Origin: Candidatus Scatovivens sp.
Lineage (GTDB): Bacteria; Bacillota; Clostridia; TANB77; CAG-508
Assembly (NCBI GenBank): GCA_045630665.1
Contig: JAZQTI010000101.1
Coordinates: 1 to 45,261, forward strand
DNA length: 45,261 nucleotides
Direction: 5' to 3'
Numbering within the stretch: position 1 is the stretch's first letter; the number at the start of each line of letters is the position of its first letter. The position numbers were made by a program, and so were the translations under genes. The notes beneath the pieces are model-generated. The model was not told where the DNA came from, did no database searches, and saw only the letters and a list, made by a program, of their open reading frames with translations. Of the stretch, positions 11,258 to 44,943 are shown piece by piece.

Positions 11258-11286
11258 TTGAAAATTTACATAAAAAATGTTATAAT
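11258..11286 (+). promoter_or_regulatory. Sigma-A-type promoter driving GC-rich island A
   Basis: TTGAAA (11258-11263), 17-nt spacer ending in TGT, TATAAT (11281-11286). It is followed by a 5' UTR of about 115 nt with alternative pairings TACCTC/GAGGTA and GAATAC/GTATTC. Confidence 0.65.
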
Positions 11287-11410
11287 AAAATGTATAGCAT
11301 ATATTGTGTTACCTCAATTTGATTTTACATCTATTTTGGGAATACAACGAAAGTTCAAGAGGTATTCGTATACTCTTTTGCTATAAATTATTTTTAAAGG
11401 GGAAGACAAT

Positions 11411-11995
11411 ATGAGTAAGTGCGGAAATGATGAGCCCATTAAGCGGTTGTGTATGGCAATCCAGGAAGTGGTAAGAGAAGATTTACAGTGTGAGATTACC
11501 AAGTGTTATAATCACACCTACTCTATCATGAAGGTGATTGCAAATCCTGAAAAAGCATACACTGTGGAAGTAAAATTTCCTGCTGCTATTTGTGAAGGCG
11601 TTCATAATGATCCTGAATGTGAAGAATGGTCTATTGAGCGTTGGAAGCAAGTTGTTCGGAAGCTTCCGATTGAGTTTGCTGTCAAAGGACATACTCACAG
11701 CAGAATGATGGTAAAATCTAAACCCGAAGCAAATCCTCTCGAGTATGCCAAGTATTTCTGGAGAAAGTTTGACGACATGAAAGGTTGGAATATCAAAGTT
11801 GGTGCAGAAGAAACTATGCCCAAACTGCTTGAAACTGGAAATGAAGCGTCTTTAGAAGAGGCTGAGGATGAAACTGGGGCTATCGAAGCGCCGGAAATCC
11901 AGGAAGAAGTAATTGAAGAAAATCAATCTACTGCTCCGAAACAGAATCTCCAGGATGTCTATGGAATGATGGGAATGAGATTTGCTGCTATGTAG
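11411..11995 (+). CDS. Hypothetical protein, 194 aa, Cys-rich N-terminal half and acidic C-terminal tail (island A; compositionally foreign)
   Basis: Uninterrupted ORF with an RBS-like AGGGG 8 nt upstream of the ATG. G+C is 27/60 in nt 11641-11700. It uses codons (CGG, CTG, GCG, CCC, GGC) that are rare in the neighbours. I recognise no family motif. Confidence 0.7.
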   Translation: MSKCGNDEPIKRLCMAIQEVVREDLQCEITKCYNHTYSIMKVIANPEKAYTVEVKFPAAICEGVHNDPECEEWSIERWKQVVRKLPIEFAVKGHTHSRMMVKSKPEANPLEYAKYFWRKFDDMKGWNIKVGAEETMPKLLETGNEASLEEAEDETGAIEAPEIQEEVIEENQSTAPKQNLQDVYGMMGMRFAAM

Positions 11996-12007
11996 AGTAT
12001 ACAAACT

Positions 12008-12039
12008 AGAGACCTGTGCATGCAGGTCTCTTTTCATTT
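12008..12039 (+). terminator. GC-rich hairpin terminator of island A
   Basis: AGAGACCTG (12008-12016), loop TGCATG, CAGGTCTCT (12023-12031), then TTTCATTT. Confidence 0.75.
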
Positions 12040-12125
12040 ATAAAACTGCTATTTGTTAAGAAATGTTGAAATATCAGGGAAAATGTGATATATTATAATA
12101 GATATTGAAAAAAGAGGTTGATATA

Positions 12126-12677
12126 GTGTCAAAAGTTGAAAAAAAATTTGAAGATTATTTTAAAATTATAAAACATAAATTACCATATTGGAATGAGCTA
12201 CCAGAAATAGATTTATATATGGACCAAGTAGTAGCTTTGATGGAAAAATATATGTCTTTTCACAAAACAGATGAAAATACCAAGATAATAACTAATTCAA
12301 TGATAAACAACTATGTAAAACTTGGAATTATGCCAGCTCCTGTGAAAAAGAAATATTCTAGAGAACATATTGCATATTTAATAATAATTTGTTGTTTAAA
12401 ACAAACTCTTCCAATATCTGATATAAAAGATTTAATAGAAATAAGAGTAAAAAGGACATCAATAGAAGAAACTTTAAATTTCTTTAGTGACTTATATGAT
12501 TCTGTATTTAATACAGTAATAGCAATAGGAAAAAAATATAGTCAAAGAAATATTGGAGAAGATAAATTATTTACAGATACAGCTTTATATATGGCGATGG
12601 GATCAAGTAGTAGTAAATATATTGCTTCTCAAATTGTTGAATTAAACAAAAATGAAGATATAAAAAAAGTTGATTAA
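12126..12677 (+). CDS. DUF1836 domain protein
   Basis: YMDQVV...NNYVKLGIMPAPVKKKYSREHIAYLIIICCLKQTL matches the DUF1836 signature region. The GTG at 12126 lies 8 nt after AAGAGG. The ORF-track TTG at 12105 would overlap that RBS. Confidence 0.65.
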   Translation: MSKVEKKFEDYFKIIKHKLPYWNELPEIDLYMDQVVALMEKYMSFHKTDENTKIITNSMINNYVKLGIMPAPVKKKYSREHIAYLIIICCLKQTLPISDIKDLIEIRVKRTSIEETLNFFSDLYDSVFNTVIAIGKKYSQRNIGEDKLFTDTALYMAMGSSSSKYIASQIVELNKNEDIKKVD

Positions 12678-12783
12678 AAATCAACTTTTTTATTTTTATA
12701 TTAAAATATGGAATATTAATCTTTTATTAATTAGCTTGAAAATATAGTGATTAATGATAAAATATATATGAGAGGAAATGAAT

Positions 12784-13239
12784 ATGATAAAAGTAATGTT
12801 TGTATGTTTAGGAAACATATGTAGATCGCCAATGGCAGAATTTGTTTTAAAAGAATTAGTTAGAAGAAAAGATTTAGAAAAAGATTTTTATATAGTTTCT
12901 AGAGCAACTAGTTTTGAAGAAGTGGGAAATGATGTGCATTATGGTACAGTTGATAAATTAAATGAAGTTGGAATTCCAGTTGAACATAGAAAAGCAAAAA
13001 GAATTGAAAAAGCAGATTATGACAAATATGATTATATAATTGGAATGGAAGATAGAAATATTTATAACATTATAAGAATTATAGGAGAAGATACAGAAAA
13101 TAAAGTATGTAGATTACTAGATTTTTCAAGTAATCCAAGAGATATTGCAGATCCTTGGTATACAGGAAATTTTACCAAAACATATGATGATATTTTAGAA
13201 GGATGTACTTGTTTTTTAGAAAAGATTATAAACGATTAA
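12784..13239 (+). CDS. Low-molecular-weight protein-tyrosine phosphatase
   Basis: P-loop VCLGNICRSPMAE (CX5R-S) near the N-terminus and a DP motif (DIADPWY) near the C-terminus. The ATG at 12784 is best spaced from GAGAGGA; the alternative ATG is at 12778. Confidence 0.85.
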   Translation: MIKVMFVCLGNICRSPMAEFVLKELVRRKDLEKDFYIVSRATSFEEVGNDVHYGTVDKLNEVGIPVEHRKAKRIEKADYDKYDYIIGMEDRNIYNIIRIIGEDTENKVCRLLDFSSNPRDIADPWYTGNFTKTYDDILEGCTCFLEKIIND

Positions 13240-13249
13240 AGGAGAGAGA

Positions 13250-13969
13250 ATGTTTAAACTTATAAAACGTCTAATATTTTTTGTAATACTAATATTATTT
13301 TTAATATTTGGTTTGTTTGTATATAGAGGATATGATATGTATAAACAAGCAATAGAAGAAATGAGTATAGAAGAAAAAATAGCAGAAATAAAAACAGAAA
13401 AAATAAATTATATAAAATATGAAGAGCTTCCTAAGGATTATATAAATGCTATAATTGCAGTAGAAGATAGAAGATATTTTGAACATAATGGAGTTGATAT
13501 TATTTCAATTGCAAGAGCAATAATAAAAGATATACAAACAATGAGCTTAGCAGAAGGTGGAAGTACAATAACGCAACAACTTGCAAAAAATACATATTTT
13601 ACACAAAGGAAAGAATTAACGAGAAAAATTGCAGAAATATTTATGGCAGTCGAATATGAACGAGTATGCTCAAAAGAAGAAATATTCGAATTATATGTAA
13701 ATACAATATATTTTGGAGATGGATATTATTGTGTTTATGATGCAGCACAAGGATATTTTTCAAAAGAACCAAAAGATATGGATTTATATGAAAGTACTTT
13801 ACTTGCTGGAATACCAAATGCTCCATCCGTTTATTCTCCAACAAAAAATCCAGAATTATCAAAAGAAAGACATGCTCAAGTTTTAAATAAAATGGTTAAA
13901 TACGAATATTTAACAGAAGAACAAGCTAATCAACTTTTAAGTATGGATTTTTCTGAAAATCAAAAATAA
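13250..13969 (+). CDS. Monofunctional peptidoglycan glycosyltransferase (GT51)
   Basis: N-terminal TM segment. GT51 motifs EDRRYFEHNGVD, GGSTITQQLAKN and RKIAE. No transpeptidase domain. Confidence 0.85.
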   Translation: MFKLIKRLIFFVILILFLIFGLFVYRGYDMYKQAIEEMSIEEKIAEIKTEKINYIKYEELPKDYINAIIAVEDRRYFEHNGVDIISIARAIIKDIQTMSLAEGGSTITQQLAKNTYFTQRKELTRKIAEIFMAVEYERVCSKEEIFELYVNTIYFGDGYYCVYDAAQGYFSKEPKDMDLYESTLLAGIPNAPSVYSPTKNPELSKERHAQVLNKMVKYEYLTEEQANQLLSMDFSENQK

Positions 13970-13972
13970 AAC

Positions 13973-14000
13973 AAAAAAGCTTCCTTTTGGAAGCTTTTTT
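13973..14000. terminator. Bidirectional terminator between GT51 and mscL
   Basis: AAAAAGCTTCC, loop TTTT, GGAAGCTTTTT. Confidence 0.8.
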
Positions 14001-14001
14001 A

Positions 14002-14469
14002 TTAATCATTTTTTGATTCAAGTACTGATGTACAGTGAGCACATCTTGTTGCTTTATATGGAATTTCGCTATAACAGAATGGACATACTTTAACTGTTGG
14101 CTCTGGAGCTGGTTCTTCTTTTTTTGTTCTTCCAAGTTTTTTGTTAATTTTTTCAACTTGTCCTAAACTAATAGCTTCCATTTTTTTAGTAATTTTGTTC
14201 ATATATGTAATTGCTAGGAAAATAGAGAATGCTATTATTAAAAAGTTTACGATTGCTGTTATAAAGTTACCATATTTTATTGATACTTCTCCAACAGTAA
14301 ACATCATATCTGAAAAATCAACTTTTCCTGTTATCATTGAAATTGCTGGCATTATAATATCATTAACTAAAGAGTTTATGATTGATTGGAATGCACCACC
14401 TATAACAACACCAACTGCTAAATCCATGATATTTCCTTTTGTAGCAAATGCTTTAAATTCTTTTAACAT
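14002..14469 (-). CDS. mscL: Large-conductance mechanosensitive channel with a C-terminal zinc-ribbon extension
   Basis: MLKEFKAFATKGNIMDLAVGVVIGGAF...NDIIMP is the canonical MscL N-terminus. The C-terminus carries CPFC-x12-CAHC. RBS AGGAGG. Confidence 0.9.
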   Translation of the reverse strand: MLKEFKAFATKGNIMDLAVGVVIGGAFQSIINSLVNDIIMPAISMITGKVDFSDMMFTVGEVSIKYGNFITAIVNFLIIAFSIFLAITYMNKITKKMEAISLGQVEKINKKLGRTKKEEPAPEPTVKVCPFCYSEIPYKATRCAHCTSVLESKND

Positions 14470-14615
14470 AAAATCCTCCTAAATTGTGTGATTTCTTATA
14501 AAAAATTTATATAATACTTGTAGAAATTTGTCAATAATTAGGATAACAAATTATTATTTGAATAAATATATATAAATGATATAATTACAATATAAATTAA
14601 AAGTAGGAGGTTTTT

Positions 14616-15188
14616 ATGAAAAAAGTAGCAGTATTTTTAGCAGATGGTTTTGAAGAGATTGAAGCATTAACAGTTGTTGATGTGGTTAGAAGAGCAGGAA
14701 TAGAATGTGATATTGTTAGTATAGAAGGAGAATTTGTAAGAAGTACACATAATGTAATTATTAAATCAGATAAAATTATTTCGGATGAAATAAAAGATTA
14801 TGATATGATAGTTTTCCCAGGAGGATTACCAGGAGCAGAAAATTTAGCCAAAAATGAAAAAGTTATAGAATTAGTAAAAGAATTCAATAATGAAAATAAA
14901 TTAATCGCAGCAATATGTGCTTCACCAGCAATGGTTCTATCAGCAGCTGGAATTGAAGAGAATAGATATATTACTTCATATCCAGGAGAAGACTTTGAAA
15001 AAATGTTAGACAAATCAAATTATGTTGAAGAATTAGTTGTTGTAGATAAAAATATAATAACAAGTAGAGGACCAGCAACAACATTGTTATTTGCATATAA
15101 AATTGTAGACTTATTAGAAGGAAATAGTGAGGAACTAAAAGAAGGAATGCTTTGGAATAAGTTAGAAGAAGAGGGAGAACAAGAATAG
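14616..15188 (+). CDS. DJ-1/PfpI (ThiJ/YajL-like) family protein
   Basis: LADGFEEIE, PGG..GA and the nucleophile-elbow motif AAICASP. RBS AGGAGG. Confidence 0.8.
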   Translation: MKKVAVFLADGFEEIEALTVVDVVRRAGIECDIVSIEGEFVRSTHNVIIKSDKIISDEIKDYDMIVFPGGLPGAENLAKNEKVIELVKEFNNENKLIAAICASPAMVLSAAGIEENRYITSYPGEDFEKMLDKSNYVEELVVVDKNIITSRGPATTLLFAYKIVDLLEGNSEELKEGMLWNKLEEEGEQE

Positions 15189-15203
15189 GAATAAGTCTTA
15201 AAT

Positions 15204-15232
15204 TTGAAATGTTATGTAAAGTATGATATAAT
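15204..15232 (+). promoter_or_regulatory. Sigma-A-type promoter driving GC-rich island B
   Basis: TTGAAA (15204-15209), 17-nt spacer, TATAAT (15227-15232) with an upstream TGA. A small stem AATAGG/CCTATT (15234-15250) lies just before the RBS. Confidence 0.65.
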
Positions 15233-15266
15233 TAATAGGATAAACCTATTAGGAGGTATGCATTAT

Positions 15267-15701
15267 ATGAGAGAGATTACAATTAGATGTGCCCAAGAAA
15301 AAGACTACCCGAAGTTTCACAAGCTTCATAAACGGTTTGCCTATTTAGAATCAAACTCGGTTCGAAATACTACCACCGTTGATGAGGCAACCTTCAAGGA
15401 ATATGTGCAGCGTGAAAGTCTTTTTGTTGCATTTGACAGTGCTAATCAGATGGTTGGTTATGCTGTTGTAGATGCATATGAAGACAAAACCTGTGATATT
15501 CAAGAAATCTTTGTTGCACCAGAACATCAGCGCAAAGGATATGGAGAACAAATCGTTCAGTTTATCAAAGACGTCGCCAAAAACGAAGGAATTGAAAAAC
15601 TGTGCGTATTTTCCATTTTCATTCAAACTGATAATTTCTGGAGATGGAGATGCCGTTTTAAGGAAGAAGAGGGTGGAGAACTGGTTTATGTAATCAATTA
15701 A
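15267..15701 (+). CDS. GNAT-family N-acetyltransferase, 144 aa (island B; compositionally foreign)
   Basis: The ATG at 15267 lies 10 nt after AGGAGG (15251-15256). Acetyl-CoA motif A is IFVAPEHQRKGYGEQIV. G+C is 23/60 in nt 15481-15540, higher than the flanks. Confidence 0.75.
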   Translation: MREITIRCAQEKDYPKFHKLHKRFAYLESNSVRNTTTVDEATFKEYVQRESLFVAFDSANQMVGYAVVDAYEDKTCDIQEIFVAPEHQRKGYGEQIVQFIKDVAKNEGIEKLCVFSIFIQTDNFWRWRCRFKEEEGGELVYVIN

Positions 15702-15710
15702 AAATGCAAG

Positions 15711-15739
15711 AAAATGCACTGCTTGGCAGTGCATTTTTC
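15711..15739. terminator. GC-rich hairpin terminator shared by the convergent GNAT and DUF445 genes
   Basis: AAAATGCACTGC (15711-15722), loop TTG, GCAGTGCATTTT (15726-15737). Confidence 0.8.
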
Positions 15740-15743
15740 TATT

Positions 15744-16640
15744 TTAAAATAATAAATTTGTTAGTCCTAAAATAAATCCTATTATAGCTCCCAAATTAAC
15801 AAGAGCATTTAATTCTTTTTTCATAATTGATAAAATTAGTTTTTCAAGTTCTAGAACTTCCATATTATTTATTTTATTTGTTATCATTTGAGAGATATTT
15901 ATATTTTCTAAAATGGAATTTAATTTATTGGTAATTGCTTTTTCATAAATATTTATTAAAATTTCTGTAGAATCAATGTTTGATTTGTCTAAATTTGTAA
16001 CAATATTTTTGATATTCATTTTTTCATATTTTTTTATTTCTTTATCAACCATGTTATGTATTGCATCATATGAATTTTCTTTTATGTAAGTATCTAATCC
16101 TTCATAGATTTCACTGGTATATGAAGAAATTAATGAATTTCCGCCTAACATACCTAAAAATGATTTTTTCATTTTTTCTTTTGCAACTAATTCTATTTGA
16201 TCTGTTATCAGTCTTGCTAAATCTGCCTCTAAAACAGCATTACAAATATTAGTTGAAATACTTGTTGCTATCGCTTCCAAAGTATTATTTAACTCATTTT
16301 CAGAAATAATAGAAAATAAAAGTTCTTTTATTGTTGTATTTTTTCCCTCAGACTCATCTAAATATTTTTTTATATTTTCTTTTAATTTTTCTTTTATTTC
16401 ATCAGATAGTAAAATATCTTGTAAATCACTATTGGTTAAAAGGTTGTCACTTATTGCTATTCCTATTGATTTTGCAATGCGCTCTTTATTTTTGGGAATG
16501 ATACCTGGAGTAAAAGGTAGTTTAAAACCAAATAGTTTTATTGGTTTTAAAGGTCTAAACATCATTTTTATTGCAATCCAGTTAGTAATATATCCAATAA
16601 TGGCACCTACTAATGGTTCTATAATAATTGAATAATTCAT
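15744..16640 (-). CDS. DUF445 family membrane protein
   Basis: GAIIGYITNWIAIKMMFRP...FTPGIIPKNKERIAKSIG is the DUF445 signature. The ATG at 16640 is preceded by TGGAG with 7-nt spacing. The longer ORF-track start at 16703 has no RBS. Confidence 0.75.
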   Translation of the reverse strand: MNYSIIIEPLVGAIIGYITNWIAIKMMFRPLKPIKLFGFKLPFTPGIIPKNKERIAKSIGIAISDNLLTNSDLQDILLSDEIKEKLKENIKKYLDESEGKNTTIKELLFSIISENELNNTLEAIATSISTNICNAVLEADLARLITDQIELVAKEKMKKSFLGMLGGNSLISSYTSEIYEGLDTYIKENSYDAIHNMVDKEIKKYEKMNIKNIVTNLDKSNIDSTEILINIYEKAITNKLNSILENINISQMITNKINNMEVLELEKLILSIMKKELNALVNLGAIIGFILGLTNLLF

Positions 16641-16926
16641 ATAATGGCTCCAATCTATATTAAAATATATTAATATTATACAAAGATTAATAATAAAATG
16701 CAAATTAAGATTATGGTTTTATATGAAAAAAGCGGAAAATTAAGTTTCCCTAGAAAAAATTTACAAAAAAATCACAAAAAACTATTTATTTTTTATGTAA
16801 AGTATGATAAAATTGTATTGTTGAGTTTGCTAAAAAAAGTAAAGCTCAACAATACGTATGAAAAGAAACAGCAAATAATTGCTTTTTTAAAATCTATAAA
16901 TGTGACTACATATATAGGAGGAATTT

Positions 16927-18072
16927 ATGTCAAATTTAAGAATGGATTTTACTGTAAGTAAAAATGCAGTAGTGTGTAACATGCTAAATGGAGAAATTCA
17001 AGGTAGAATGAGATCTAGAAAAAATCCTGCTTTGAAAAAAGAGTACAGAGAAAGAGGAATAATCGATTCAACACCAGCTATAACAAGATTTATACTTAAT
17101 CACCCAAGAGTTTTCGGTAATGATAAATTAATTCATGGAGATGGTTCTAACTTTTTTGAAGGAATTTTACCAGTATATTCAGATCCTTCAAATGTTTCTT
17201 GTAGAGAAACATTAAGAAACAGAATGAAATATGAATATGATTTAACAGATGCAGAATTAGTAGGTATGGAAAGATTTTTTGATGACTTTCAAACATTAGC
17301 AGATACACCAGAGATTCAAAAAATAGTAAGTGACACAGAAGATTATAAAGAATCTATAGAAGATGCTTGGAGAGCAAGTGAAGCTTCTATTATGAAATAC
17401 ATAAGAAATGTATTAGGTTATGAACCAGAAAAAGTAGGAGATGTAAGAGCTTTTATAATGTATCCTACATTTGATGTGCATAGATGTTCTCAAGAAAGTA
17501 ACAGAACAAGTTTATTTTTTGCTAGAAGAAATGATAATGATATAAATAAAATTCTAGCTTATTTTACACATCAAGCAGTTCATCAACCTTTATTACCATA
17601 TAAAAATTCAATGACTAAAAAAGAAAAAGAAGAATATCATGCATTCATAAAATTCTTAACAGACAAAGATGTATATTATCAACTTTCAGGAAAAAGTTAT
17701 TTAGATATAGTAACACAAAATGAAAATCCTGAAGTAATGGGAAAAGTATATCCATTTTGGCTTGGTTATAGATATAGAAATGCTGATAAAGAAGGTCAAA
17801 GTTCAGTAGAACAAATAAAAATGGCAATACAAAGAGATAAAGATTATTATGATAGTTTGCCAGAAAATTCAAGAAAAAAATCATTATATTCTACATATGA
17901 ATTTGAAAAATTAGATCCTGAAAAAATTGCAATTTTATTTAGAGAAAAAAGAGGTATAACACCATATCAATTTGCAAAAACAGATTTTTCTAGAAAAGAA
18001 TTAGTTTATAAAGACAGATATATAAGTAACACAAGAAAAGTATTTTCTCAAGGAGATGAAGAAAGAAGATAA
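16927..18072 (+). CDS. Hypothetical cytoplasmic protein, 381 aa
   Basis: Long ORF with host composition and RBS AGGAGG 7 nt upstream. I recognise no motif. Confidence 0.7.
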   Translation: MSNLRMDFTVSKNAVVCNMLNGEIQGRMRSRKNPALKKEYRERGIIDSTPAITRFILNHPRVFGNDKLIHGDGSNFFEGILPVYSDPSNVSCRETLRNRMKYEYDLTDAELVGMERFFDDFQTLADTPEIQKIVSDTEDYKESIEDAWRASEASIMKYIRNVLGYEPEKVGDVRAFIMYPTFDVHRCSQESNRTSLFFARRNDNDINKILAYFTHQAVHQPLLPYKNSMTKKEKEEYHAFIKFLTDKDVYYQLSGKSYLDIVTQNENPEVMGKVYPFWLGYRYRNADKEGQSSVEQIKMAIQRDKDYYDSLPENSRKKSLYSTYEFEKLDPEKIAILFREKRGITPYQFAKTDFSRKELVYKDRYISNTRKVFSQGDEERR

Positions 18073-18077
18073 TATAA

Positions 18078-18108
18078 AAGAGTTCGAGTTTTTCGAACTC
18101 TTTTTTGT
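18078..18108 (+). terminator. Intrinsic terminator
   Basis: AAGAGTTCGA, loop GTTTT, TCGAACTCTT, then TTTT. Confidence 0.8.
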
Positions 18109-18173
18109 TTAAATCGCTTGCCTAAAAAAATAATTATTGATATCATTTTTATAGAAATTTATAAGAGGGTATT

Positions 18174-19181: not shown

Positions 19182-19182
19182 A

Positions 19183-19214
19183 AAATAAACTGGCAATTAT
19201 TTGCCAGTTTATTT
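19183..19214. terminator. Bidirectional terminator
   Basis: AAATAAACTGGCAA, loop TTAT, TTGCCAGTTTATTT. Confidence 0.8.
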
Positions 19215-19528
19215 TATTTTTTATTAAATAAATTGTTTACCATATTTTTTATTTCTTCTTGTTGTTTAGATGTTTGGAATTCTTCTAAAATGTATTTTCC
19301 TTTTTCTAATTTTAAAATAGATCCTTCTTTTACGTTTTCAGGTAAATCAGATATTGGAATATTAATATATTCACCAGTTTGTTTGTTTTCACAAATTGCA
19401 AATTCACCTTCAAATCTATCTATAGAAAATGTTGCACTAGTTTTATTTATATATTCATTTAATTCATTTGAAAATGAACTATTAATTGTAGTATTATTAT
19501 TTTTATTTTCATGTATTTCTAAAGTCAT
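19214..19528 (-). CDS. DUF3006 domain protein
   Basis: IDRFEGEFAICENKQTGEYINIPISDLPENVKEGSIL matches the DUF3006 pattern. This family is often found next to ComEC-like MBL genes. RBS AGGAGG. Confidence 0.7.
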   Translation of the reverse strand: MTLEIHENKNNNTTINSSFSNELNEYINKTSATFSIDRFEGEFAICENKQTGEYINIPISDLPENVKEGSILKLEKGKYILEEFQTSKQQEEIKNMVNNLFNKK

Positions 19529-19631
19529 AAAAACCTCCTATTCATATTTAATATAGCATAAATTATTTTTATTTACAAATAATTTGTTTATTGATAAAAT
19601 ATAAAAAAATTAAAAAAACAAAGGAGAAGAT

Positions 19632-20654: not shown

Positions 20655-20890
20655 ATATTTCTCCTAAACTTTATATAAAAAAATTTACCACAAAAACTAT
20701 ATAAAGTCAAAATAAAACGAGAATTATAATTAATGAATTTTGAGAAAAAATGATGAATTTAAATTGGGAAATAAACAGATATTTAGAATAAATTAAGTGA
20801 TATTTTTAATGAAAGAAGAAATATTTGAAATGTATAAATTAAAAAGATTAATAGAATAATTAATAATTTTAAAAAAATATAAAAAAACGC

Positions 20891-20919: not shown

Positions 20920-20925
20920 TTAATT

Positions 20926-23367: not shown

Positions 23368-25161
23368 ATGATGCAAAAAAGAAATTTGGATTCTAAAAAA
23401 AGAATAATGTTACTACTTTATGCAGTAATTATTTTATGGATTATTGTTATTATAAGAGTTGCAATAATTCAACTTGTTGAAGGAGAAAAATGGAAAAATA
23501 AATCAGAAGAACAACAATATGTAAGTAGAAGTATAACAGCAGGTAGAGGTACAATTTATGATACGAGTGGGAAAATAGTTTTAGCCCAAAGTAGTACTGT
23601 CCAAACTGTTACAATTAATCCAACAAATATTCCAAAAGAAAATAGAGAAATTGTAGCAAAAAAATTATCTGAGATTTTTGAGTTAGAATATGAGAAAATT
23701 TTAAAAAAAGTTAATAAAAATAGCTCAATCGAAACAATTATAAAAAGGGTTGACAAAGAAAAAACAGATGAACTCAGAAAATGGATGGAAGAAAAAAGTA
23801 TATTTACAGGAATAAATATTGATGAAGACACAAAAAGATATTATCCATATTCGAGTTTAGCGTCTCATATAATTGGATTTGTTGGAAGTGATAATCAAGG
23901 ATTGGATGGTATTGAAGCTAAATATAATAAAGTATTAACTGGAGAAAATGGAAGTATTAGCAAGATGCTTGATGCTAAAGGGAATATTATAGAAAATACA
24001 GGTGAAGAATATGAAAAATCTATGCAAGGGAATAATTTGATTTTAACAATAGATATGAATATTCAAGCCATTGTTGAAAAATATTTAGAAGAAGCATGTA
24101 TAGAAAATATTTGTACAAATGGAGGAAATGTAATTATAATGAATCCTAAAAATGGAGATGTTTTAGCAATGGCAACATATCCTTTCTATGATTTGAATAA
24201 TCCATATGAAATAAATAATATGGATTTGAAAGAAATATGGAGTGAATTAGATACGACACAAAAGTCATTATATTTACAAGGAATGTGGAGAAATAAAGCT
24301 GTAGCAGATACTTATGAACCGGGATCTACATTTAAATTAGTTACAGCATCAGCTGCAATAGAAGAAGGAATTGCAAGTCCGGATAAATCGGGAAGTTTTT
24401 TGTGTACAGGTGGAATTGAGGTGGCTAAAGTAAGAATAAAATGCTGGAGATATTATAGACCTCATGGTAGTCAGAGTTTAAGAGAAGGACTGATGAATTC
24501 GTGTAATCCAGTATTTATTGGATTAGGTCAAAAAATTGGGGTTTCTAAATATTATAATTATTTAGAAAAATTTGGTTTTTTGAAAAAAACTGGTATAGAT
24601 TTAATTGGAGAAGCTAATTCAATATTTTTAAAAGAAGAAAAAGTTGGACCAGTAGAACTTGCAACTATAAGTTTTGGTCAAAGATTTGAAGTTACACCAA
24701 TCCAAATGATTACTATGGTATCAACAATTGCTAATAAAGGAGTATATATAAAACCTCGAGTTGTAAGAGCAATTCAAAATCCAATAACAGAAGAAACACA
24801 AGAAATAGAAGTAGAATATGGAGAAAGAACTATATCAGAAAGAACTGCAGAATCAGTTTTAAGTATGATGACATCAGTGGTTTCAGAAGGAACTGGAAAA
24901 AATGCTAGAGTACAAGGATATAATGTCGGAGGAAAAACAGGAACTTCTGAAGATGGAGTAAATACTGGAAAATATGTAACATCTTTTATAGGTGTAGCTC
25001 CGACAGACGATCCAAGTATTTGTATTTTAGTTACTTTGTATAATCCAACAGGAGAAGCAGGTCATCAAGGTGGAACTGTTGCTGCACCAGTAGCAGGAAA
25101 AATTTTAAATGAAGTTATAAATTATCTAGAAATACCAACAAAAAGTGAGGTAGATACTTGA
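23368..25161 (+). CDS. Class B penicillin-binding protein (FtsI/PBP2B/SpoVD type transpeptidase)
   Basis: N-terminal TM segment and a dimerisation domain. Motifs STFK (GSTFKLV), SxN (NSCNP) and KTG (GGKTGTS). The alternative start ATG at 23371 is slightly better spaced from GGAG. Confidence 0.9.
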   Translation: MMQKRNLDSKKRIMLLLYAVIILWIIVIIRVAIIQLVEGEKWKNKSEEQQYVSRSITAGRGTIYDTSGKIVLAQSSTVQTVTINPTNIPKENREIVAKKLSEIFELEYEKILKKVNKNSSIETIIKRVDKEKTDELRKWMEEKSIFTGINIDEDTKRYYPYSSLASHIIGFVGSDNQGLDGIEAKYNKVLTGENGSISKMLDAKGNIIENTGEEYEKSMQGNNLILTIDMNIQAIVEKYLEEACIENICTNGGNVIIMNPKNGDVLAMATYPFYDLNNPYEINNMDLKEIWSELDTTQKSLYLQGMWRNKAVADTYEPGSTFKLVTASAAIEEGIASPDKSGSFLCTGGIEVAKVRIKCWRYYRPHGSQSLREGLMNSCNPVFIGLGQKIGVSKYYNYLEKFGFLKKTGIDLIGEANSIFLKEEKVGPVELATISFGQRFEVTPIQMITMVSTIANKGVYIKPRVVRAIQNPITEETQEIEVEYGERTISERTAESVLSMMTSVVSEGTGKNARVQGYNVGGKTGTSEDGVNTGKYVTSFIGVAPTDDPSICILVTLYNPTGEAGHQGGTVAAPVAGKILNEVINYLEIPTKSEVDT

Positions 25162-25186
25162 AAAAAAGCCTAAAAAGCTGTATAAT
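25158..25186 (+). promoter_or_regulatory. Sigma-A-type promoter driving GC-rich island C; its -35 box overlaps the PBP stop codon
   Basis: TTGAAA (25158-25163; the PBP stop TGA is at 25159-25161), 17-nt spacer ending in CTG, TATAAT (25181-25186). Confidence 0.65.
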
Positions 25187-25239
25187 GCTAGATGGCAAAA
25201 CATTTTGTTCTCATAAAATTTGCAATGGAGGTAAGCATT

Positions 25240-25965
25240 ATGGATGAGAATCGTGTGTTCGAATTGCGCGTTCCTGAAGGCGCAGTAGTCAAAGACGTGA
25301 AATTCAATCCATATTGGGGCTTTGTCGCAGCAACGATGGAGGTCCTAGGGATTGCAATCACGTTTATCCGGACTGACTTCATAAAAGAGGTCAGGAGAGT
25401 CACATGGGATATGTCAGAAGTCCTTTCGGTATCTGATTACCATGAAGTGTTACCCAGTGTGGTTACCAAAAGTATCGAGAAATGCAAAGGAATTTTCATT
25501 TCCAGAGACTTTGCGATGGTGGACCCTGAGCTGGGAGAACTGGTTCCCAATTCTGGAGTTGTCAAAAGAGGTATGTGCTTCGATGAAGCCCCAAATGCTC
25601 TTCTGGAAATTCCCGGGATGGAAGCAAGTTTGCTTTATGGTGCGGTATATGATACCATTGGAAGATGGCTTATCGCAACCAAATCTCTTTCTTATGATGA
25701 ATGGGTCAACAGCCCTACAACTAAGAAAGAACAAGATGCAATTCTGGATCGAGAATGCGGCAACTGGACGATTCGAGAACTCTTCGGAGATATTTTCGAT
25801 ACTGAGTGGACAATGGAGTCCTATCAGCAGTATGCTGTGGCAAGAGAAGGAACACCGTTTTCCGACGGTGAAGCACTTTACCCCGCAAGAAAGCGGTATA
25901 CTTATCAAACCTGGATGAAACATTCCAAAGCAGCGGTAAGAACAATGTGGTCGTTTAAGGAGTGA
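25240..25965 (+). CDS. Hypothetical protein, 241 aa (island C; compositionally foreign, inside the dcw cluster)
   Basis: The ATG at 25240 lies 8 nt after GGAGG (25227-25231). The ORF is uninterrupted. G+C is 29/60 in nt 25261-25320, against 14/60 in murE nt 26221-26280. I recognise no family motif. Confidence 0.7.
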   Translation: MDENRVFELRVPEGAVVKDVKFNPYWGFVAATMEVLGIAITFIRTDFIKEVRRVTWDMSEVLSVSDYHEVLPSVVTKSIEKCKGIFISRDFAMVDPELGELVPNSGVVKRGMCFDEAPNALLEIPGMEASLLYGAVYDTIGRWLIATKSLSYDEWVNSPTTKKEQDAILDRECGNWTIRELFGDIFDTEWTMESYQQYAVAREGTPFSDGEALYPARKRYTYQTWMKHSKAAVRTMWSFKE

Positions 25966-25978
25966 GAGACACAAGCAA

Positions 25979-26010
25979 AGGAGACCTGAGAATTCAGGTC
26001 TCCTTTACGT
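25979..26010 (+). terminator. GC-rich hairpin terminator of island C
   Basis: AGGAGACCTGA (25979-25989), loop GAAT, TCAGGTCTCCT (25994-26004), then TTACGTT (a weak T-tract). Confidence 0.65.
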
Positions 26011-26206
26011 TCGAAAATGATTAGTAATAAATCTAAAAATATATAATAAAATTAAAGTAAAATAAATAAAAAATTATATACAAAAAAATCATTTTGCTAT
26101 ATAATAACATTGATATACTACAAAGATATCGAATTAAAGGAAAAACAAATTAGAAACGAATATAAAATTTTATATTTGCAATAACAAATTTCGAAGGAGA
26201 ATTCAA

Positions 26207-37509: not shown

Positions 37510-37528
37510 TATTATAAAAAGGGAATAT

Positions 37529-39889: not shown

Positions 39890-39891
39890 AT

Positions 39892-41286
39892 ATGAATGAA
39901 ATTATTGTAATAGGTGGAGGGTTAGCAGGATGTGAAGCGGCTCTTCAAATTGCTAAAAGAAAAATAAAAGTAAAATTATATGAAATGAAACCATATAAAT
40001 TCTCTCCTGCACATAGTAATGAAGATTTGGCTGAAATAGTATGTAGTAATTCATTTAAATCCAATTTGATTACAAATGCATGTGGATTATTAAAAGAAGA
40101 ATTAAGAATATTAGGGTCAGAACTTATAAAAGTAGCAGATAATAATTCTGTTCCTGCTGGACAAGCTTTGGCTGTTGATAGAGAAAAATTCTCAAAAGAA
40201 ATAACAGATATTATTAATAAAAACGAATATATAGAAGTTGTTAGAGAAGAAATTACTCAAATACCAAAAAATGCAATTGTAATTATTGCAACTGGTCCTC
40301 TAACCTCAGAAAAACTATCAGAAGAAATTGCTAAATTAACAGGTAATGATAAACTATACTTTTATGATGCTGCGGCTCCAATAGTAGAAAAAGATTCAAT
40401 AAATATGGATATTGCTTTTTATGGTGATAGATATACTCAAGAAAGAGAAAAAGAAGAATCAATAGAGGATTGGAAAGAAAGAGTTAAAGATCATAAAGGA
40501 AGTTATATAAATCTTCCAATGAATAAAGAAGAATATGAACTTTTCTATAATGAACTTGTAAATGCAGAAGTTGTTAATTTACATGAATTCGAAAAAAGAG
40601 AAATTTTTGAAGGGTGTATGCCAGTTGAGATAATGGCTAAAAGAGGAATAGATACATTAAGATTTGGACCATTAAAACCTGTTGGGTTCACAGATCCAAG
40701 AACTGGAAAAAGACCATATGCAGTTATTCAATTAAGACAAGATAACCAAGAAGGAAATATATATAATATAGTAGGATTTCAAACTAATTTGAAATTTGGA
40801 GAACAAAAAAGAGTATTTTCTTTGATTCCAGGACTTGAAAATGCTAATTTCATAAAATATGGAGTTATGCATAGAAATACATATATTAATTCTACTTATA
40901 TATTAGACAATACATATAATATGAAAGAAAATAGAAATATATTTTTTGCAGGACAAGTTACTGGGGTTGAAGGATATGTGGAATCAATATCTTCTGGATT
41001 TGTAGCAGGAATAAATGCTGCAAAGCTATTTGAAATAAAAAATCAAATACAAGAAGATACATTATGTATTGAAAAATATGAATCTGAAAAAATTGTTTTT
41101 TCTAATCAAACTGTAATAGGCGCACTGGCATTATATATATCAACAGAAAATGATAAATTTCAACCTATGAATGCGAATTTTGGTATTTTGCCAGAGTTAG
41201 AAGAAAAGATAAAAGACAAAAAATTAAGATATAATCAATTAGCTCAAAGAGCATTAGATGATATAAATTTAAATAAATATATATAA
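39892..41286 (+). CDS. trmFO: Methylenetetrahydrofolate--tRNA-(uracil54-C5)-methyltransferase
   Basis: FAD loop [29 protein letters not shown] and [14 protein letters not shown] are TrmFO/Gid motifs. The ATG lies 2 nt after the upstream stop, which suggests translational coupling. Confidence 0.9.
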
Positions 41287-41320
41287 ATGTGGATAAATTC
41301 TAGTTAATTTACATAAAATA

Positions 41321-41349
41321 TTGACTTTTTGTTACAAAAATGTTACAAT
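41321..41349 (+). promoter_or_regulatory. Sigma-A-type promoter for the small ORF and coiled-coil gene
   Basis: TTGACT (41321-41326), 17-nt spacer ending in TGT, TACAAT (41344-41349). Confidence 0.65.
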
Positions 41350-41386
41350 GGAAAAGTAAGAATTTATTAAGTAAAGGAGATTTTGT

Positions 41387-41497
41387 ATGGAAGAAAAATT
41401 AAATGAAGAAGGCGTAAAATTTGTTAAAGACCTAGTAAAAACAAAACTTGAGCTTAATGAAATTATCACAGAATGTGAAGTTAAAAAAGCAGAATAA
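41387..41497 (+). CDS. Small ORF, 36 aa (MEEKLNEEGVKFVKDLVKTKLELNEIITECEVKKAE); below the ORF-track size cut-off
   Basis: AAGGAGA (41374-41380) lies 6 nt upstream of the ATG. Its initiation region is nearly identical to that of the downstream 980-aa gene. Confidence 0.45.
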   Translation: MEEKLNEEGVKFVKDLVKTKLELNEIITECEVKKAE

Positions 41498-41543
41498 TTT
41501 TTGCTTGCTGAAATATAAAATATAAAAATAAAAGGAGATTTTT

Positions 41544-44486
41544 ATGGAAGAAAGAACTTTAGAAGAACTAAATAAAGAATATGTAGATTTAGTTAAAAAA
41601 GTTAGAGAAATTAAAGGTGAATTAGAAGCAGCAAATGCAAAAAAGGAAGCTGCTAACACTAGTTATGAAGAAGCATCAAGTACATATAGTGAAAAGGACT
41701 TAGCATATAAAGCTTTATTACCAGTACTTGAAGCAGCAGAAAAAGCAAATTATTCTGAAGCTGTTATAGAAGCAATGAGAAAACAAGTAGAAGATGCAAA
41801 AGCTGAATTAGATAAAGCTCAAACTGCATTAGATGAAAAAAGAACAGAACAAGAACAAATGGCTGAAGCATATAATGAAATTGAACAGAGAGCTCAAACT
41901 CAAAGCGATAGACTAGGAGTAATTGTTCAAAGTTTTGCAGGAAATGAAATTATAAACCAAGCTTTAAGAGATGAAATGGAATATGAATATCAAAAACTTA
42001 TTGATAAAAAACAAAAAGAACTTGCAAAAACTGAAGAACTAAAAACAAAAATAAATGAAGACCCTGAAATAAAACAAGGTGTAGGAGAACTTACAAAATT
42101 ACTTGAAGACTTTGAAAAAGCAAGAGCTAATGCAACAATAGATAATCCAGGTGAATTAGTAAAAATTGCATCAAAAATAAAAGTTCAAAGAAATGCGATT
42201 AAAACCCAAATGAGAAAATTAGGATTAAGAACTGGAAAAATAGAACCAGATGCAATTGATGATATGACAAGATTAGTTGATGACAAAGGTAGAATGGTAA
42301 TCAGAGAATTAGATTCTAGAGCTGAAGTTCAAACTGCTGAAATTGCAAGAGTAGAAGCAGAAAGAGATGAAGCAATGAGCAATCTTGCAGCATCATTAGC
42401 GGTAGGAAAAGATGAAAAAGTAGAAGGATATGATGAGGCTAAACAAGAAATTGAGAGAATGACAACAGAGTTACAATCTTTAAGAACACAACATGGAGAG
42501 AAGAAAACTAAGATTAAAGAAATTGAAGAAAAAACAAGAGAATTGTCTTCAGAATTAGATGGAATCAAATTAGATCCAGTAATGGCTGCAAAACTTGCTG
42601 AATTACAAACTCAAAAAGCAGAAATTGAAAAAGAAAAAGTTCCTTTAATTGAAAATCCAAAAAGAGCTGAATTACAAGCTCAAATTGTTGAATTAAATCG
42701 TCAAAAAAATACAGCTGGTAGTGGACAAGTTGAAACTGAAGCATACAAAGAAGCAAAAAAAGCTTTAGAAAAAGCTAGAAGAGATTTAGAATATGAGAGA
42801 AAAAATCCATCACTTGTAGTATTTTTTGGAAATAAAGATCAAATAATAGATAATCCAGAGTACAAAGTTGCAGAAGCAAGATTAGGAATACTTGAAAATA
42901 ATTATGAGTCACTTTTAAATACTATAATAGAATCTGATGAAGAGTTAAAAAGAATTGATGATGAATATGCAGATATCGAACAACAAGAAGATGAAATAAA
43001 AGCAAGAAGAGAAGAACTTAATGGAAGTGATTCTAATAAAAAAGAAGAGTTATATACAAATTATGTTGGAGAAGAATTATATCCAGACATAACAGACCCA
43101 GAAACAGAACAAGGAAAAGCTTTTGAGGAATATAAAGCTGCTGAATTAGAAATCAGAAAAGCAATGCTTGCTATACAAAAAGATCCTTCAGAAGCTAATA
43201 TTGAAAGATTAGCAACTGCAAAAAGTGTATTAGGTGAAAAAACATCTGCATTAAAAGTTGAATTAACAATTGCAAATGGGACAAGTTTTTCACCATCAAC
43301 TGAAGCGATACACAATTATTTAACAGGAGTATTAGAATCTGAAATAATTGGAGACTTAGATGCAGAAGTAGATGAAGCATATAATTTAAAAGCTGCAGAT
43401 AATGCAATTTCAGTGTTAGCTTCAAAATTAAAAAGAACAGATAAAGAAGCGATATCAGAATTAAGAAGATCTTCTAATGAAATTGCTAAATATTTAGATG
43501 TTATGCTATTAGGACAACCATATGATATTGATGAGTTTTTAGAAGCCGTTGATGTTCATAGCCAAAATATGAGACTTTTTGATGACCCTGAAAAAGTACG
43601 AGCTACTTTAGTTGGATCAAATGAAATGTTAGAAACAGAAAATACTTCATTATTTGGTTTTGGATTTATAAGAAATTTATGGTCAAAATTAACAATGCCA
43701 AAAGTAGATGAAGAATATGATTTACCAAAAAATAAAAGACCAGAAGTGTATGATGAATTAGAAGGAACACAAACTGAACTTAGAGAATTAGAAGCAAAAG
43801 AAAAAGGAATTGCAGAACGTAAAACAGAAGTTGATAGAGCGTTTAGAGAAAGACTTGAAGCAGTGATGTCTCCTGAACAAAAAGAAAGCTTATCAAAGAA
43901 AGATAGAGAAATTAAAGATATAAGAAAAAAATTAAAGGTTTTACCAAGAAAAATTAATAAAACAAAATTAGAAAGATTAGAAGCAGAAGTGGCTACTGCA
44001 ACAACTAAATTGAATTCAACACCACAATTTGAATCAACAATTGATGTAGGACAAATAGATTCAGAAATTACTAGATTAACAAGCGAAATGGAAAAAGAAC
44101 CTGAGCAAGTTGTAGATCCAGAAAAAGAATCTGATAGAAAAGAGAGATTAGCCCAAAAACAAGCTGAAATTGATGGATTAGGAGTAACAGAGAATCCTAG
44201 AGTTGCTGAAATTACGGCAATGCTACAACAATTAGAAATTGATTCTCAAAATGGAACAACAGAACTAACAGAGCTTGAAAGTAAAATTACTACATTGTCT
44301 AAAAATTTGGAAATTAAACAAAGAGCATTTGCGATATTAGAACTTGCAAAAAATAAAATTAAAAATTTAATACATATTAAAAATCCAAAATTTATATCTA
44401 ATAGAAATGCTAAAAGTGTTGCAAATCAATTAGCAGAACATGTAAAATCTAATGCTAAAAAACAAGCAAGAGGCGAAAGAGAATAA
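41544..44486 (+). CDS. 980-aa coiled-coil protein with no enzymatic motif recognised
   Basis: RBS AAGGAGA. The sequence is mostly heptad-like and E/K/A/L/Q-rich, with no P-loop, TM segment or signal peptide. One hydrophobic/amphipathic patch is SLFGFGFIRNLWSKL. Confidence 0.8.
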   Translation: MEERTLEELNKEYVDLVKKVREIKGELEAANAKKEAANTSYEEASSTYSEKDLAYKALLPVLEAAEKANYSEAVIEAMRKQVEDAKAELDKAQTALDEKRTEQEQMAEAYNEIEQRAQTQSDRLGVIVQSFAGNEIINQALRDEMEYEYQKLIDKKQKELAKTEELKTKINEDPEIKQGVGELTKLLEDFEKARANATIDNPGELVKIASKIKVQRNAIKTQMRKLGLRTGKIEPDAIDDMTRLVDDKGRMVIRELDSRAEVQTAEIARVEAERDEAMSNLAASLAVGKDEKVEGYDEAKQEIERMTTELQSLRTQHGEKKTKIKEIEEKTRELSSELDGIKLDPVMAAKLAELQTQKAEIEKEKVPLIENPKRAELQAQIVELNRQKNTAGSGQVETEAYKEAKKALEKARRDLEYERKNPSLVVFFGNKDQIIDNPEYKVAEARLGILENNYESLLNTIIESDEELKRIDDEYADIEQQEDEIKARREELNGSDSNKKEELYTNYVGEELYPDITDPETEQGKAFEEYKAAELEIRKAMLAIQKDPSEANIERLATAKSVLGEKTSALKVELTIANGTSFSPSTEAIHNYLTGVLESEIIGDLDAEVDEAYNLKAADNAISVLASKLKRTDKEAISELRRSSNEIAKYLDVMLLGQPYDIDEFLEAVDVHSQNMRLFDDPEKVRATLVGSNEMLETENTSLFGFGFIRNLWSKLTMPKVDEEYDLPKNKRPEVYDELEGTQTELRELEAKEKGIAERKTEVDRAFRERLEAVMSPEQKESLSKKDREIKDIRKKLKVLPRKINKTKLERLEAEVATATTKLNSTPQFESTIDVGQIDSEITRLTSEMEKEPEQVVDPEKESDRKERLAQKQAEIDGLGVTENPRVAEITAMLQQLEIDSQNGTTELTELESKITTLSKNLEIKQRAFAILELAKNKIKNLIHIKNPKFISNRNAKSVANQLAEHVKSNAKKQARGERE

Positions 44487-44498
44487 ATTATAAAAAAG

Positions 44499-44527
44499 AG
44501 TCCAGTTATGCGTAACTGGACTTTTTT
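44499..44527 (+). terminator. Intrinsic terminator after the coiled-coil gene
   Basis: AGTCCAGTTA, loop TGCG, TAACTGGACT, then TTTTT. Confidence 0.85.
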
Positions 44528-44545
44528 ATGTAAATATGCTATAAT
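44517..44545 (+). promoter_or_regulatory. Candidate promoter for island D; its -35 box lies in the descending arm of the upstream terminator
   Basis: TGGACT (44517-44522), 17-nt spacer ending in TGC, TATAAT (44540-44545). Confidence 0.5.
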
Positions 44546-44576
44546 ATAAGTACATTATGTGGAAAGGAGGGAGAGT

Positions 44577-44873
44577 ATGAAGCGGTTTACAAGGAATTTG
44601 TTGCCCGTTATCATATTAGTTGCACTCATTATTGCATTGGCTGCACTGGGATTGATTGGGGAACTTCTTGCTTCTGTTGGGAACTTTGTTATCAAATTCT
44701 TTGTTAAAAATTGGGATTATGCATTGGTTGCTGTTATTGCTTCGGTATTAACAAGCCTCATTTGCACCTGGTTGGATGACAAAGAAGTAACTGGTAACAC
44801 GATTCTGACAAGAAAAAAGAGAGTTAACAAGGGAACACCCAGAACAGGCGGCCATGTTGAAGATGTAGAGTAA
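44577..44873 (+). CDS. Small two-TM membrane protein, 98 aa (island D; compositionally foreign)
   Basis: The ATG at 44577 follows AGGAGGGAG. Two hydrophobic helices (LLPVIILVALIIALAALGLIG and YALVAVIASVLTSLICTW) and a basic tail. G+C is 25/60 in nt 44641-44700. Confidence 0.65.
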   Translation: MKRFTRNLLPVIILVALIIALAALGLIGELLASVGNFVIKFFVKNWDYALVAVIASVLTSLICTWLDDKEVTGNTILTRKKRVNKGTPRTGGHVEDVE

Positions 44874-44906
44874 CATCCCTACATTCGAACTACTCGAGTG
44901 CCAATA

Positions 44907-44943
44907 AGCTCCAAGTTTCAAACGAAACGAGGGGCTTTTTTGG
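44907..44943 (+). terminator. Interrupted hairpin plus T-tract after island D
   Basis: AGCTCC-AA-GTTTC, loop AAAC, GAAAC-GA-GGGGCT, then TTTTTTT. Confidence 0.6.

Follow-up and report, generated by a model that had tools for sequence, protein, structure and literature searches.

Phage morons, a concept associated with Hendrix and Juhala, are reportedly autonomous units of promoter, open reading frame (ORF) and terminator. They lie between two genes of a conserved cluster, have an atypical composition, are dispensable, and are present or absent among relatives. Integron cassettes are co-oriented single-ORF units with an inverted repeat (attC) at the 3' end; their promoterless ORFs are read from a platform promoter (Pc), and they come with an integrase (IntI), an attI site and an array. 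Finally, in the amelioration model of Lawrence and Ochman, the composition of a foreign gene is said to decay towards the G+C content of its host, fastest at third codon positions, and atypical G+C is routinely taken as a clock of recent horizontal transfer. Here we analyze contig JAZQTI010000101.1 of Candidatus Scatovivens sp. ("the window," which is the whole contig of 45,261 bp, with 27.5% G+C), which contains four G+C-rich single-gene islands (A to D). We propose that the islands are probably old accessory genes that were acquired separately, are transcribed autonomously, and have been inherited mostly vertically, and that they are not cassettes.

The four islands are segments of 37-46% G+C on the + strand, and both the G+C profile and the list of ORFs give one credible gene for each. 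Island A encodes 194 amino acids (11411-11995, + strand; G+C 0.415, and 0.38 at third codon positions, or GC3), island B encodes 144 (15267-15701, + strand; G+C 0.38, GC3 0.33), island C encodes 241 (25240-25965, + strand; G+C 0.45, GC3 0.44), and island D encodes 98 (44577-44873, + strand; G+C 0.40, GC3 0.37). Across the islands, GC3 is 0.33-0.44 and G+C at fourfold-degenerate sites (GC4) is 0.30-0.45; the corresponding values for 33 host ORFs are 0.07-0.22 and 0-0.14, with an overall G+C of 0.20-0.33. The islands are 3.2-18.5 kb apart, with core genes between them. An earlier note on this DNA had described them as + strand units that are co-oriented with their neighbors and hold exactly one ORF each. 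All four are indeed co-oriented with the upstream gene, and the count of one is right for real genes; the additional ORFs in the mechanical list (15351-15734 on the - strand, 25442-25918 on the + strand, and 25450-25974 on the - strand) are by-products in other frames. The island junctions recur identically in independent assemblies, and on this basis we rejected an assembly chimera.

Each island begins directly after a stop codon or a terminator and has the near-consensus promoter that the earlier note gave for it: TTGAAA, or TGGACT in island D, then a 17-nt spacer and TATAAT. The -35 box of island C (promoter at 25158..25186, + strand) overlaps the TGA stop codon of a penicillin-binding protein gene (PBP; 23368-25161), and island B (promoter TTGAAA-TGTTATGTAAAGTATGA-TATAAT at 15204..15232, + strand) begins 15 nt past the stop codon of the DJ-1 gene. 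Islands A (promoter at 11258..11286, + strand, conserved in the related locus L091) and D (TGGACT-TTTTTATGTAAATATGC-TATAAT at 44517..44545, + strand) are preceded by upstream terminator hairpins, and the -35 region of D lies within the 3' arm and T run of that terminator. The string TTGAAA-N17-TATAAT has just three matches on both strands of the window, at 11258, 15204 and 25158, and each of these is an island promoter (A, B and C, respectively); 0.12 matches are expected, and 0 of 100 shuffled sequences had three. These promoters are also the joint best sigma-70-like matches between 10 and 30 kb, tied with one other site.

At the other end, each island has a hairpin, as had been claimed, and all four are stable when compared to shuffled sequences (z from -4.1 to -5.3). 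These are perfect G+C-rich stems followed by T runs, or in other words, intrinsic terminators. In island A, the stem is AGAGACCTG-tgcatg-CAGGTCTCT (12008..12031, + strand; -15.9 kcal/mol, z -4.4), and in island C it is AAAGGAGACCTGA-gaat-TCAGGTCTCCTTT (25977..26006, + strand; -21.4 kcal/mol, z -4.9). Island D ends in a compound hairpin and a T run just upstream of the rpsL promoter (44896..44948, + strand; -27.1 kcal/mol, z -5.3). The hairpin of island B (15710..15738; -17.3 kcal/mol, z -4.1) is bidirectional and is shared with a convergent DUF445 gene (15744-16703, - strand). The leader of island A (11287..11410, + strand) has no significant overall fold (z -0.8).

Taken together, each island would be a one-gene transcription unit with a predicted sigma-A-type promoter, a short leader with a GGAGG ribosome binding site, an ORF, and an intrinsic terminator. 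Each appears to sit in an intergenic spacer between co-directional core genes, where it would not have displaced the downstream host promoter. For instance, the murE promoter (TATACA-17-TATAAT at 26077..26105, + strand, within a conserved ..CTGTACAAAA..TATATAAT context) is retained 3' of island C, and likewise at sites that lack the island.

We looked for these modules in related loci (given here as L numbers). The nearest 80 species-representative loci are all from uncultured gut Clostridia with 23-34% G+C, and the mraZ gene of the window matches one from a 'Candidatus Scatovivens' metagenome-assembled genome (MAG) at 97% identity. For island C, the synteny set was mraZ ± 10 kb from 80 related species, and L093 and L178-L186 were added by later look-ups. 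In L011, L012, L013, L017 and L032, a homolog of protein C (41-57% amino acid identity) is encoded in the interval from the PBP gene to murE, and orthologs are at the same site in L093 and L178-L186 (41-58% identity over the whole set). It is the whole module that is conserved: promoter, leader motif, ribosome binding site, ORF and terminator are all homologous. The ortholog promoters (L011, L012, L013, L017, L032 and L093) have TTGAAA, TTGCAA or TTGCCA at -35 and TATAAT or TATTAT at -10. The leader motif GTTCTCA (25207..25213, + strand, in the context GC(G)CAAA..TT(A)GTTCTCA) is found in 6 of 7 C modules (L017 has GTCTCA), and the terminators keep the stem GGAGAC(C/T)...GGTCTCC-TTTACGTT. The site is empty in L014-16, L018, L022, L023, L027 and L035-38, where the spacer is 87-293 bp with 15-19% G+C, and the murE promoter is intact at those empty sites where we read the sequence (L015, L022, L023 and L035-38). 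In a neighbor-joining tree of mraZ, rsmH and the PBP, the window, L011, L012, L013, L017 and L093 form one C-bearing clade.

Islands A and B have positional orthologs as well. Orthologs of A are at the same site as in the window in L091 (87% identity) and in L095 (37%); the L095 gene is a 201-aa ORF with 45.5% G+C and a recognizably homologous leader that keeps the segment AAGAGGTA..TATACTCTTTTG. The A site is empty in L014, L039 and L059. Homologs of B follow DJ-1 in L013, L014, L091 and L095-97 and lie in the same region in L028, L029, L039, L035 and L037; the B orthologs in related loci are 35-98% identical, and the site is empty in L024. At empty sites, the island's promoter is absent, and the host promoters of murE and of the gene downstream of island A (g12105) persist. 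One MAG, RGIG6403 (L095 and L017), carries A, B and C together. In contrast, we did not find D outside of this species. Its protein is identical, and its surroundings are the same, in 10 other metagenome contigs or assemblies of the species; a scan of rpsL regions gave just two near relatives, neither of which is syntenic upstream, and a scan of JGI metagenomes with the 980-aa protein encoded upstream of D gave no match. Island D may be younger than the others. At least 5 independent short assemblies with D (Logan contigs L003-L007) break about 140-290 bp downstream of it, before rpsL, which suggests either an assembly break at a conserved ribosomal-protein region or strain variation there.

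Across pairs of loci, the amino acid identities of island and host proteins roughly track each other: 78% for C when host proteins are 92% identical (L011-L012), 64% for C at a host identity of 92% (L013-L093), 84% for B at 97% (L028-L029), and 98% for B and 87% for A at 98% (window-L091). These values also show that island proteins diverge several-fold faster than the neighboring proteins. We favor separate acquisition of A, B and C, not as a set, by ancestors of a subclade within the 'Candidatus Scatovivens'-like Clostridia. From then on, their positions would have been fixed and their inheritance mainly vertical, apart from an occasional loss or an exchange by way of the conserved flanks. 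The original insertion may have been by illegitimate recombination into spacers.

The earlier note had raised two options: that the islands were independent transfers, each domesticated, or that a single mechanism akin to integrons had placed promoterless cassettes (ribosome binding site, ORF and hairpin) behind host promoters. In support of a site-specific system whose recombinase is encoded elsewhere, the islands are co-oriented single-ORF units that end in hairpins, three of them have exactly the same promoter hexamers and spacing, and an 8-mer is common to the stems of A and C. But each promoter goes along with its gene and is missing where the site is empty, which is not how promoterless cassettes behind host promoters would look; each island has a promoter of its own where a cassette would depend on a Pc. 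Similarly, the 3' hairpins are terminators and not attC sites: there is no GTTRRRY or RYYYAAC core within about 90-145 nt after the four stop codons. A comparison of module boundaries gave no attC-like core, no flanking direct repeats, and no 3' sharing above background. No target-site duplication was found; the longest direct repeats across island boundaries are within what shuffling gives. Sharing of 3' ends between unrelated islands is at the background level, and the A/C 8-mer is below the top of the range of sharing that we observed.

The other two similarities in that note, nearly identical initiation strings in B and C and shared stem strings (GAGACCTG...CAGGTCTC) in A and C, are present in the window, but neither is a family-wide motif. 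The initiation regions of the C orthologs vary, so the identity to B is peculiar to this genome's C (several species keep AGGAGGTAWGCATTATATG in B), and the A ortholog in L095 has a different stem, GAGGGACCC...GGGTCCCTC. Furthermore, genes for an integrase, a transposase or an HUH enzyme were found neither in the window nor in the gene tables of the syntenic contigs, which together cover almost all of it, and those tables list no integrase Pfam family; there is also no attI site, no array, and no evidence of mobility. The units are dispersed, and they are fixed at the same sites across species whose synonymous divergence is saturated. The islands are not integron-like cassettes, nothing in the window moves them, and we consider it very unlikely that a cassette system placed them. 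Instead, A, B and C are carried vertically by relatives, which the earlier note had itself listed as an outcome that would speak against its idea. More generally, an anatomy of promoter, ORF and hairpin is not by itself grounds for inferring cassette-type mobility.

Morons are a closer match in structure, as the islands are autonomous promoter-ORF-terminator units of atypical composition between conserved genes. In contrast to morons, they do not reside in a prophage: their flanks are core chromosomal genes (trkH/trkA; DJ-1; mraZ-rsmH-ftsL-PBP-murE-mraY, which is part of the dcw cluster; and the region upstream of rpsL). There are no phage genes near the islands, no structural or lysogeny genes were found with PHROG, and A, C and D had no relatives in scans of IMG/VR. 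Also, the islands retain both their site and their composition from one species to the next.

This persistence of composition is not what amelioration would give. As in that model, the islands are compositionally atypical, lineage-restricted accessory or ORFan genes in an otherwise uniform genome. But all of the orthologs of A, B and C have a GC3 of 0.32-0.64 in genomes with 26-28% G+C, and GC3 and GC4 stay at 0.3-0.6 across saturated host divergence. Fourfold-degenerate sites in host genes have 6-10% G+C, and differences between strong (G or C) and weak (A or T) bases are at or near saturation between species; the amelioration exponent implied by this is 1-2.5 or more for each lineage. In the flanking PBP gene of six C-bearing species, the distribution of strong and weak states over fourfold sites follows binomial(6, 0.126) almost exactly, so the host states are fully randomized. 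In the same six genomes, island C has a GC4 of 0.345 (p = 1e-13 versus the host) and is strongly over-dispersed (p < 5e-5, variance test), with 9 columns that have G or C in at least 5 of the 6 genomes versus 1.4 expected. Similarly, between the window and L091, 46% of the host's G/C fourfold sites differ, versus 9% in A and B (p = 3e-8), despite protein A being just 87% identical. Because GC4 and site-specific G/C are kept in the islands despite saturation of the host's fourfold sites, neutral amelioration does not explain them. From these comparisons of sequences, we argue that synonymous G/C in the islands is retained non-neutrally or that the alleles are renewed; G+C might be held up by selection on synonymous sites or on the mRNA. 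(Polarizing changes as GC-to-AT or AT-to-GC by parsimony with three taxa was dropped, as the host control had a large and spurious excess of AT-to-GC changes because of saturation and skewed composition.) We rejected translational selection for host-preferred codons, since the highly expressed rpsL, rpsG and fusA have a GC4 of 0.01-0.04.

If the islands were instead four recent and independent transfers from donors with around 40-45% G+C, like classical young genomic islets, then there would have been too little time for amelioration. The proportions of GC1, GC2 and GC3 in the islands are consistent with this, as they match those of a genome of 40-45% G+C at equilibrium (when set against the Muto-Osawa regressions) and not the GC3-depleted pattern of a gene in mid-amelioration. 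The islands' choice of codons (GCA, GGA, AGC and CTG) also resembles that of mid-GC gut Clostridia, and D is seen only in this species. However, A, B and C have diverged orthologs at the same positions in species between which fourfold sites of host genes are saturated, and the orthologs are themselves saturated at these sites. Also, no donor was found for any island, there was no close homolog outside the clade either among 5.8 billion proteins or in a full HMMER search of 1.84 billion representatives, and IMG/VR gave no relatives. The synteny shows that this explanation is false for A, B and C, and overall we think it improbable. Of the earlier note's two options, independent domesticated transfers fit better, but these would be old, they have not ameliorated, and the donor of about 45% G+C that it proposed was not found.

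Another way to hold up G+C would be dual coding: an overlapping antisense gene would remove the freedom of third positions. In many orthologs, a codon-aligned antisense frame (- strand) runs without a stop through most of A, B and C, TTA, CTA and TCA are rare, and synonymous sites are unusually conserved. But the antisense frame is broken in several orthologs (C of L013, L017 and L032) and in D, its start would lie inside or beyond the terminator hairpin, and its translation does not look protein-like. On the sense strand, protein B has a Pfam domain, and the motifs of protein C are strongly conserved. Besides CTA and TCA, the codons CCA and CGA are rare too, a sign of general codon usage; the frame is open because TTA, CTA and TCA are rare. 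We judged the open frame to be a by-product of codon usage and rejected dual coding, which is the least plausible of the explanations that we considered.

The promoters of the islands have more in common than their hexamers, as the earlier note's idea of shared 5' ends would have it, but this does not extend to all four. The promoter and spacer of B (TTGAAA-tATTATGTAAAGTATGn-TATAAT) are nearly invariant in 10 of 10 B modules, even at protein identities of 35-47%. A core, TTATGTAAA-(n)-TRTGnTATAAT, is present in all of the B orthologs, in D (as TTATGTAAA-TATGnTATAAT) and in the A ortholog from L095, and it is inverted in the A of the window, whose spacer includes TTTACATAA, the reverse complement of TTATGTAAA. 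The extended -10 element TRTGn is typical of Firmicutes. The C promoters lack the core, while some relatives' islands have it. It is also found at a host promoter (position 16793 of the window, upstream of the gene at 16927-18072, g16927) and at a few others. The -10 and start region of A in L095 has a 20-mer in common with an island gene of L039 that is unrelated to A, is G+C-rich and encodes 97 amino acids, and 6 of 216 pairs of non-homologous islands share a 14-mer or longer, as compared to 30 of 11,616 host pairs; these pairs include non-independent orthologs, so the p-values are optimistic. TTATGTAAA alone is weakly enriched (7 matches versus 2.6 expected). We read the shared core, which is known here from sequence comparison, as a likely sign of common regulation or as a favored variant of a strong promoter, although it may instead reflect a common 5' vehicle.

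In that last case, the islands would be a family of modules with a promoter-bearing 5' end (TTATGTAAA-n-TRTGnTATAAT-wAAAkTGTA), with diverse G+C-rich ORFs recruited behind one type of promoter or spread with it, and allele exchange, possibly GC-biased, would keep their G+C high. Besides the core and the 14- to 20-mers just described, this would account for non-homologous G+C-rich genes at the same sites (the C site in L024 and the B site in L035; L041 and L050 have further G+C-rich single-gene modules of the same anatomy between ftsL and the PBP gene) and for C alleles in L017 and L032 that are incongruent with the host tree. Against it, C has no core, the host promoter of g16927 and a few others do, so that the core may be a host operator or a strong-promoter variant, the enrichment of TTATGTAAA is weak and the pair statistics are inflated, and no mechanism or enzyme was identified. 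We consider such a family to be unlikely, and we prefer old, separate acquisitions with a promoter core that would reflect common regulation.

Several observations weigh against separate acquisition followed by vertical inheritance. No donor lineage was identified for any island, and fully independent acquisitions do not predict a core that is common to unrelated islands. L032 carries C but is a distant outlier in the host tree, and the C allele of L017 is incongruent with that tree: it is as distant from those of L013 and L093 as the window's C is, even though the hosts are about 91% identical. The distribution of C in L017 and L032 requires some lateral exchange of alleles or repeated loss. 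D, as noted, was not found in other species. Two close pairs, L028-L029 and L035-L037, have a synonymous divergence in B that is near the neutral expectation, so the retention of G+C may not be uniform across islands. Finally, the fourfold sites of each gene number just in the tens.

A broader idea is that there is a lineage-wide class of promoter-ORF-terminator modules that sit at their own equilibrium of about 40-46% G+C, are actively maintained, and in many cases are tied together by one promoter or operator core. We offer this tentatively, as it seems more doubtful than not; literature searches found nothing on persistent G+C-rich modules in this clade. If it is correct, then the maintaining process would be synonymous or mRNA selection or GC-biased allele exchange, and the "foreign" composition would be a maintained functional property, not the fading signature of a transfer. 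In either case, single genes here hold a G+C content 15-18 points above that of the genome, across species with saturated synonymous sites. If this is genome-wide, it would be a clean natural case against neutral amelioration and for gene-specific forces on bacterial base composition. The system is tractable, with small modules, a defined promoter core, and both filled and empty sites, and it could be used to test how G+C affects expression or mRNA stability in extremely A+T-rich Firmicutes.

What do the islands encode? Protein A, whose C-terminal tail is acidic, is an ORFan: there is no match to it in Pfam, PHROG, NCBIfam or PADLOC, and just two clusters (94% and 87% identity) were found among the 5.8 billion proteins. 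Protein B matches PF00583 (Acetyltransf_1; 1.3e-12, 48.4 bits versus a cut-off of 20.7), including the region of the acetyl-CoA-binding motif, which identifies it as a predicted GNAT-family N-acetyltransferase without an assignable subfamily; its NCBIfam matches are all far below the cut-offs, no equivalog was reached, and just generic acetyltransferase families were matched in PHROG. Protein D (98 aa) is small and hydrophobic (membrane-type) with a basic tail, and it has no family match. None of the four proteins matched a defense system in PADLOC, and A, C and D have no meaningful PHROG match.

Protein C is part of a lineage-restricted family that comprises about 25 clusters and whose motifs are strongly conserved. 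A profile of this family gave three strong matches in the full HMMER search and then about 140 weak ones; of the weak matches that were scanned, many carry weak matches to PF03781 (FGE-sulfatase). These remote homologs are proteins of 250-350 amino acids for which the cluster look-up gave neither names nor taxa. The C family aligns to the remote family with a probability of 99.9% (profile-profile comparison with hhalign, E = 1e-31), and the best PDB matches of the remote family's profile are TvpA, SUMF2, FGE and PorK. Together, these links place protein C as a predicted divergent and distant member of the FGE/C-type-lectin-like fold, via a transitive route through the remote homologs only. Protein C itself does not reach PF03781, a direct profile search against PDB and Pfam was empty, and an AlphaFold2 model (pLDDT 73.6, pTM 0.78) had no PDB fold match at E ≤ 0.001. 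Although TvpA is a variable protein of a diversity-generating retroelement (DGR), C lacks the features of DGR targets: there is no C-terminal GFR-type motif, no reverse transcriptase in the window or the syntenic loci, no template repeat near C, and the C-terminal residues are invariant across the family instead of hypervariable.

Besides the islands, the window contains trkH/trkA, a DUF1836 gene, DJ-1, mraZ-rsmH-ftsL-PBP-murE-mraY-ftsW-murG, topA, a GidA-family gene (PF01134), and the start of rpsL. G+C skew is positive throughout, and nearly all of the genes are on the + strand. Scans with Rfam and for tRNAs found no match in the window. Two long lineage-specific proteins are essentially without family annotation: a 1282-aa protein with a CLIPPER domain (2516-6364) and a 980-aa coiled-coil protein with weak SMC/Rad50-like matches only (41544-44486). 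Between the latter and the GidA-family gene is a 36-aa ORF (MEEKLNEEGVKFVKDLVKTKLELNEIITECEVKKAE, 41388-41498) with its own promoter (TTGACT-17-TACAAT), which was called as a gene in several independent assemblies.

Two promoters in the window have potential operators. The spacer of the B promoter (15204-15232 and its orthologs) is far better conserved than protein B is, and the promoter contains an imperfect palindrome, TTATGT-N8-ATATAA, that includes the -10 box and is probably the binding site of a repressor. Upstream of the 381-aa gene at 16927-18072, which has no Pfam match, the promoter and leader (16760-16926) have orthologs in L011-L095. In most relatives, a conserved palindrome (TCACA-N3-TGTGA) lies over the extended -10 element; in this lineage, TTATGTAAAGTATGA takes its place. 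Within the leader, the segment AAATCTATAAATGTRACTACATATATAGGAGG hardly varies among any of the species. This suggests a putative operator along with an element for translational control.

Island sites hold other DNA in some relatives. In L011 (3011-3982) and L012 (3389-4351), the B site has a lactate/malate-dehydrogenase-like gene of host composition (30% G+C) in place of the acetyltransferase, so the spacer after DJ-1 accepts ordinary genes as well; the genes in L024 and L035 mentioned above are likewise not homologous to the islands at those sites. At the island A site of L028 (around 1950-2150) and L029 (around 1960-2110), in the spacer between the homologs of g10647 and g12105, there is a segment some 150 bp long that has a G+C-rich core and 18-bp terminal inverted repeats (TATAGTGCTAATATATAT ... 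ATATATATTAGCACTATA) and is preceded in L028 by tandem repeats of about 40 bp. The segment is in opposite orientations in these two close genomes, and by its sequence it is a candidate for either an invertible DNA switch or an element resembling a miniature inverted-repeat transposable element (MITE).

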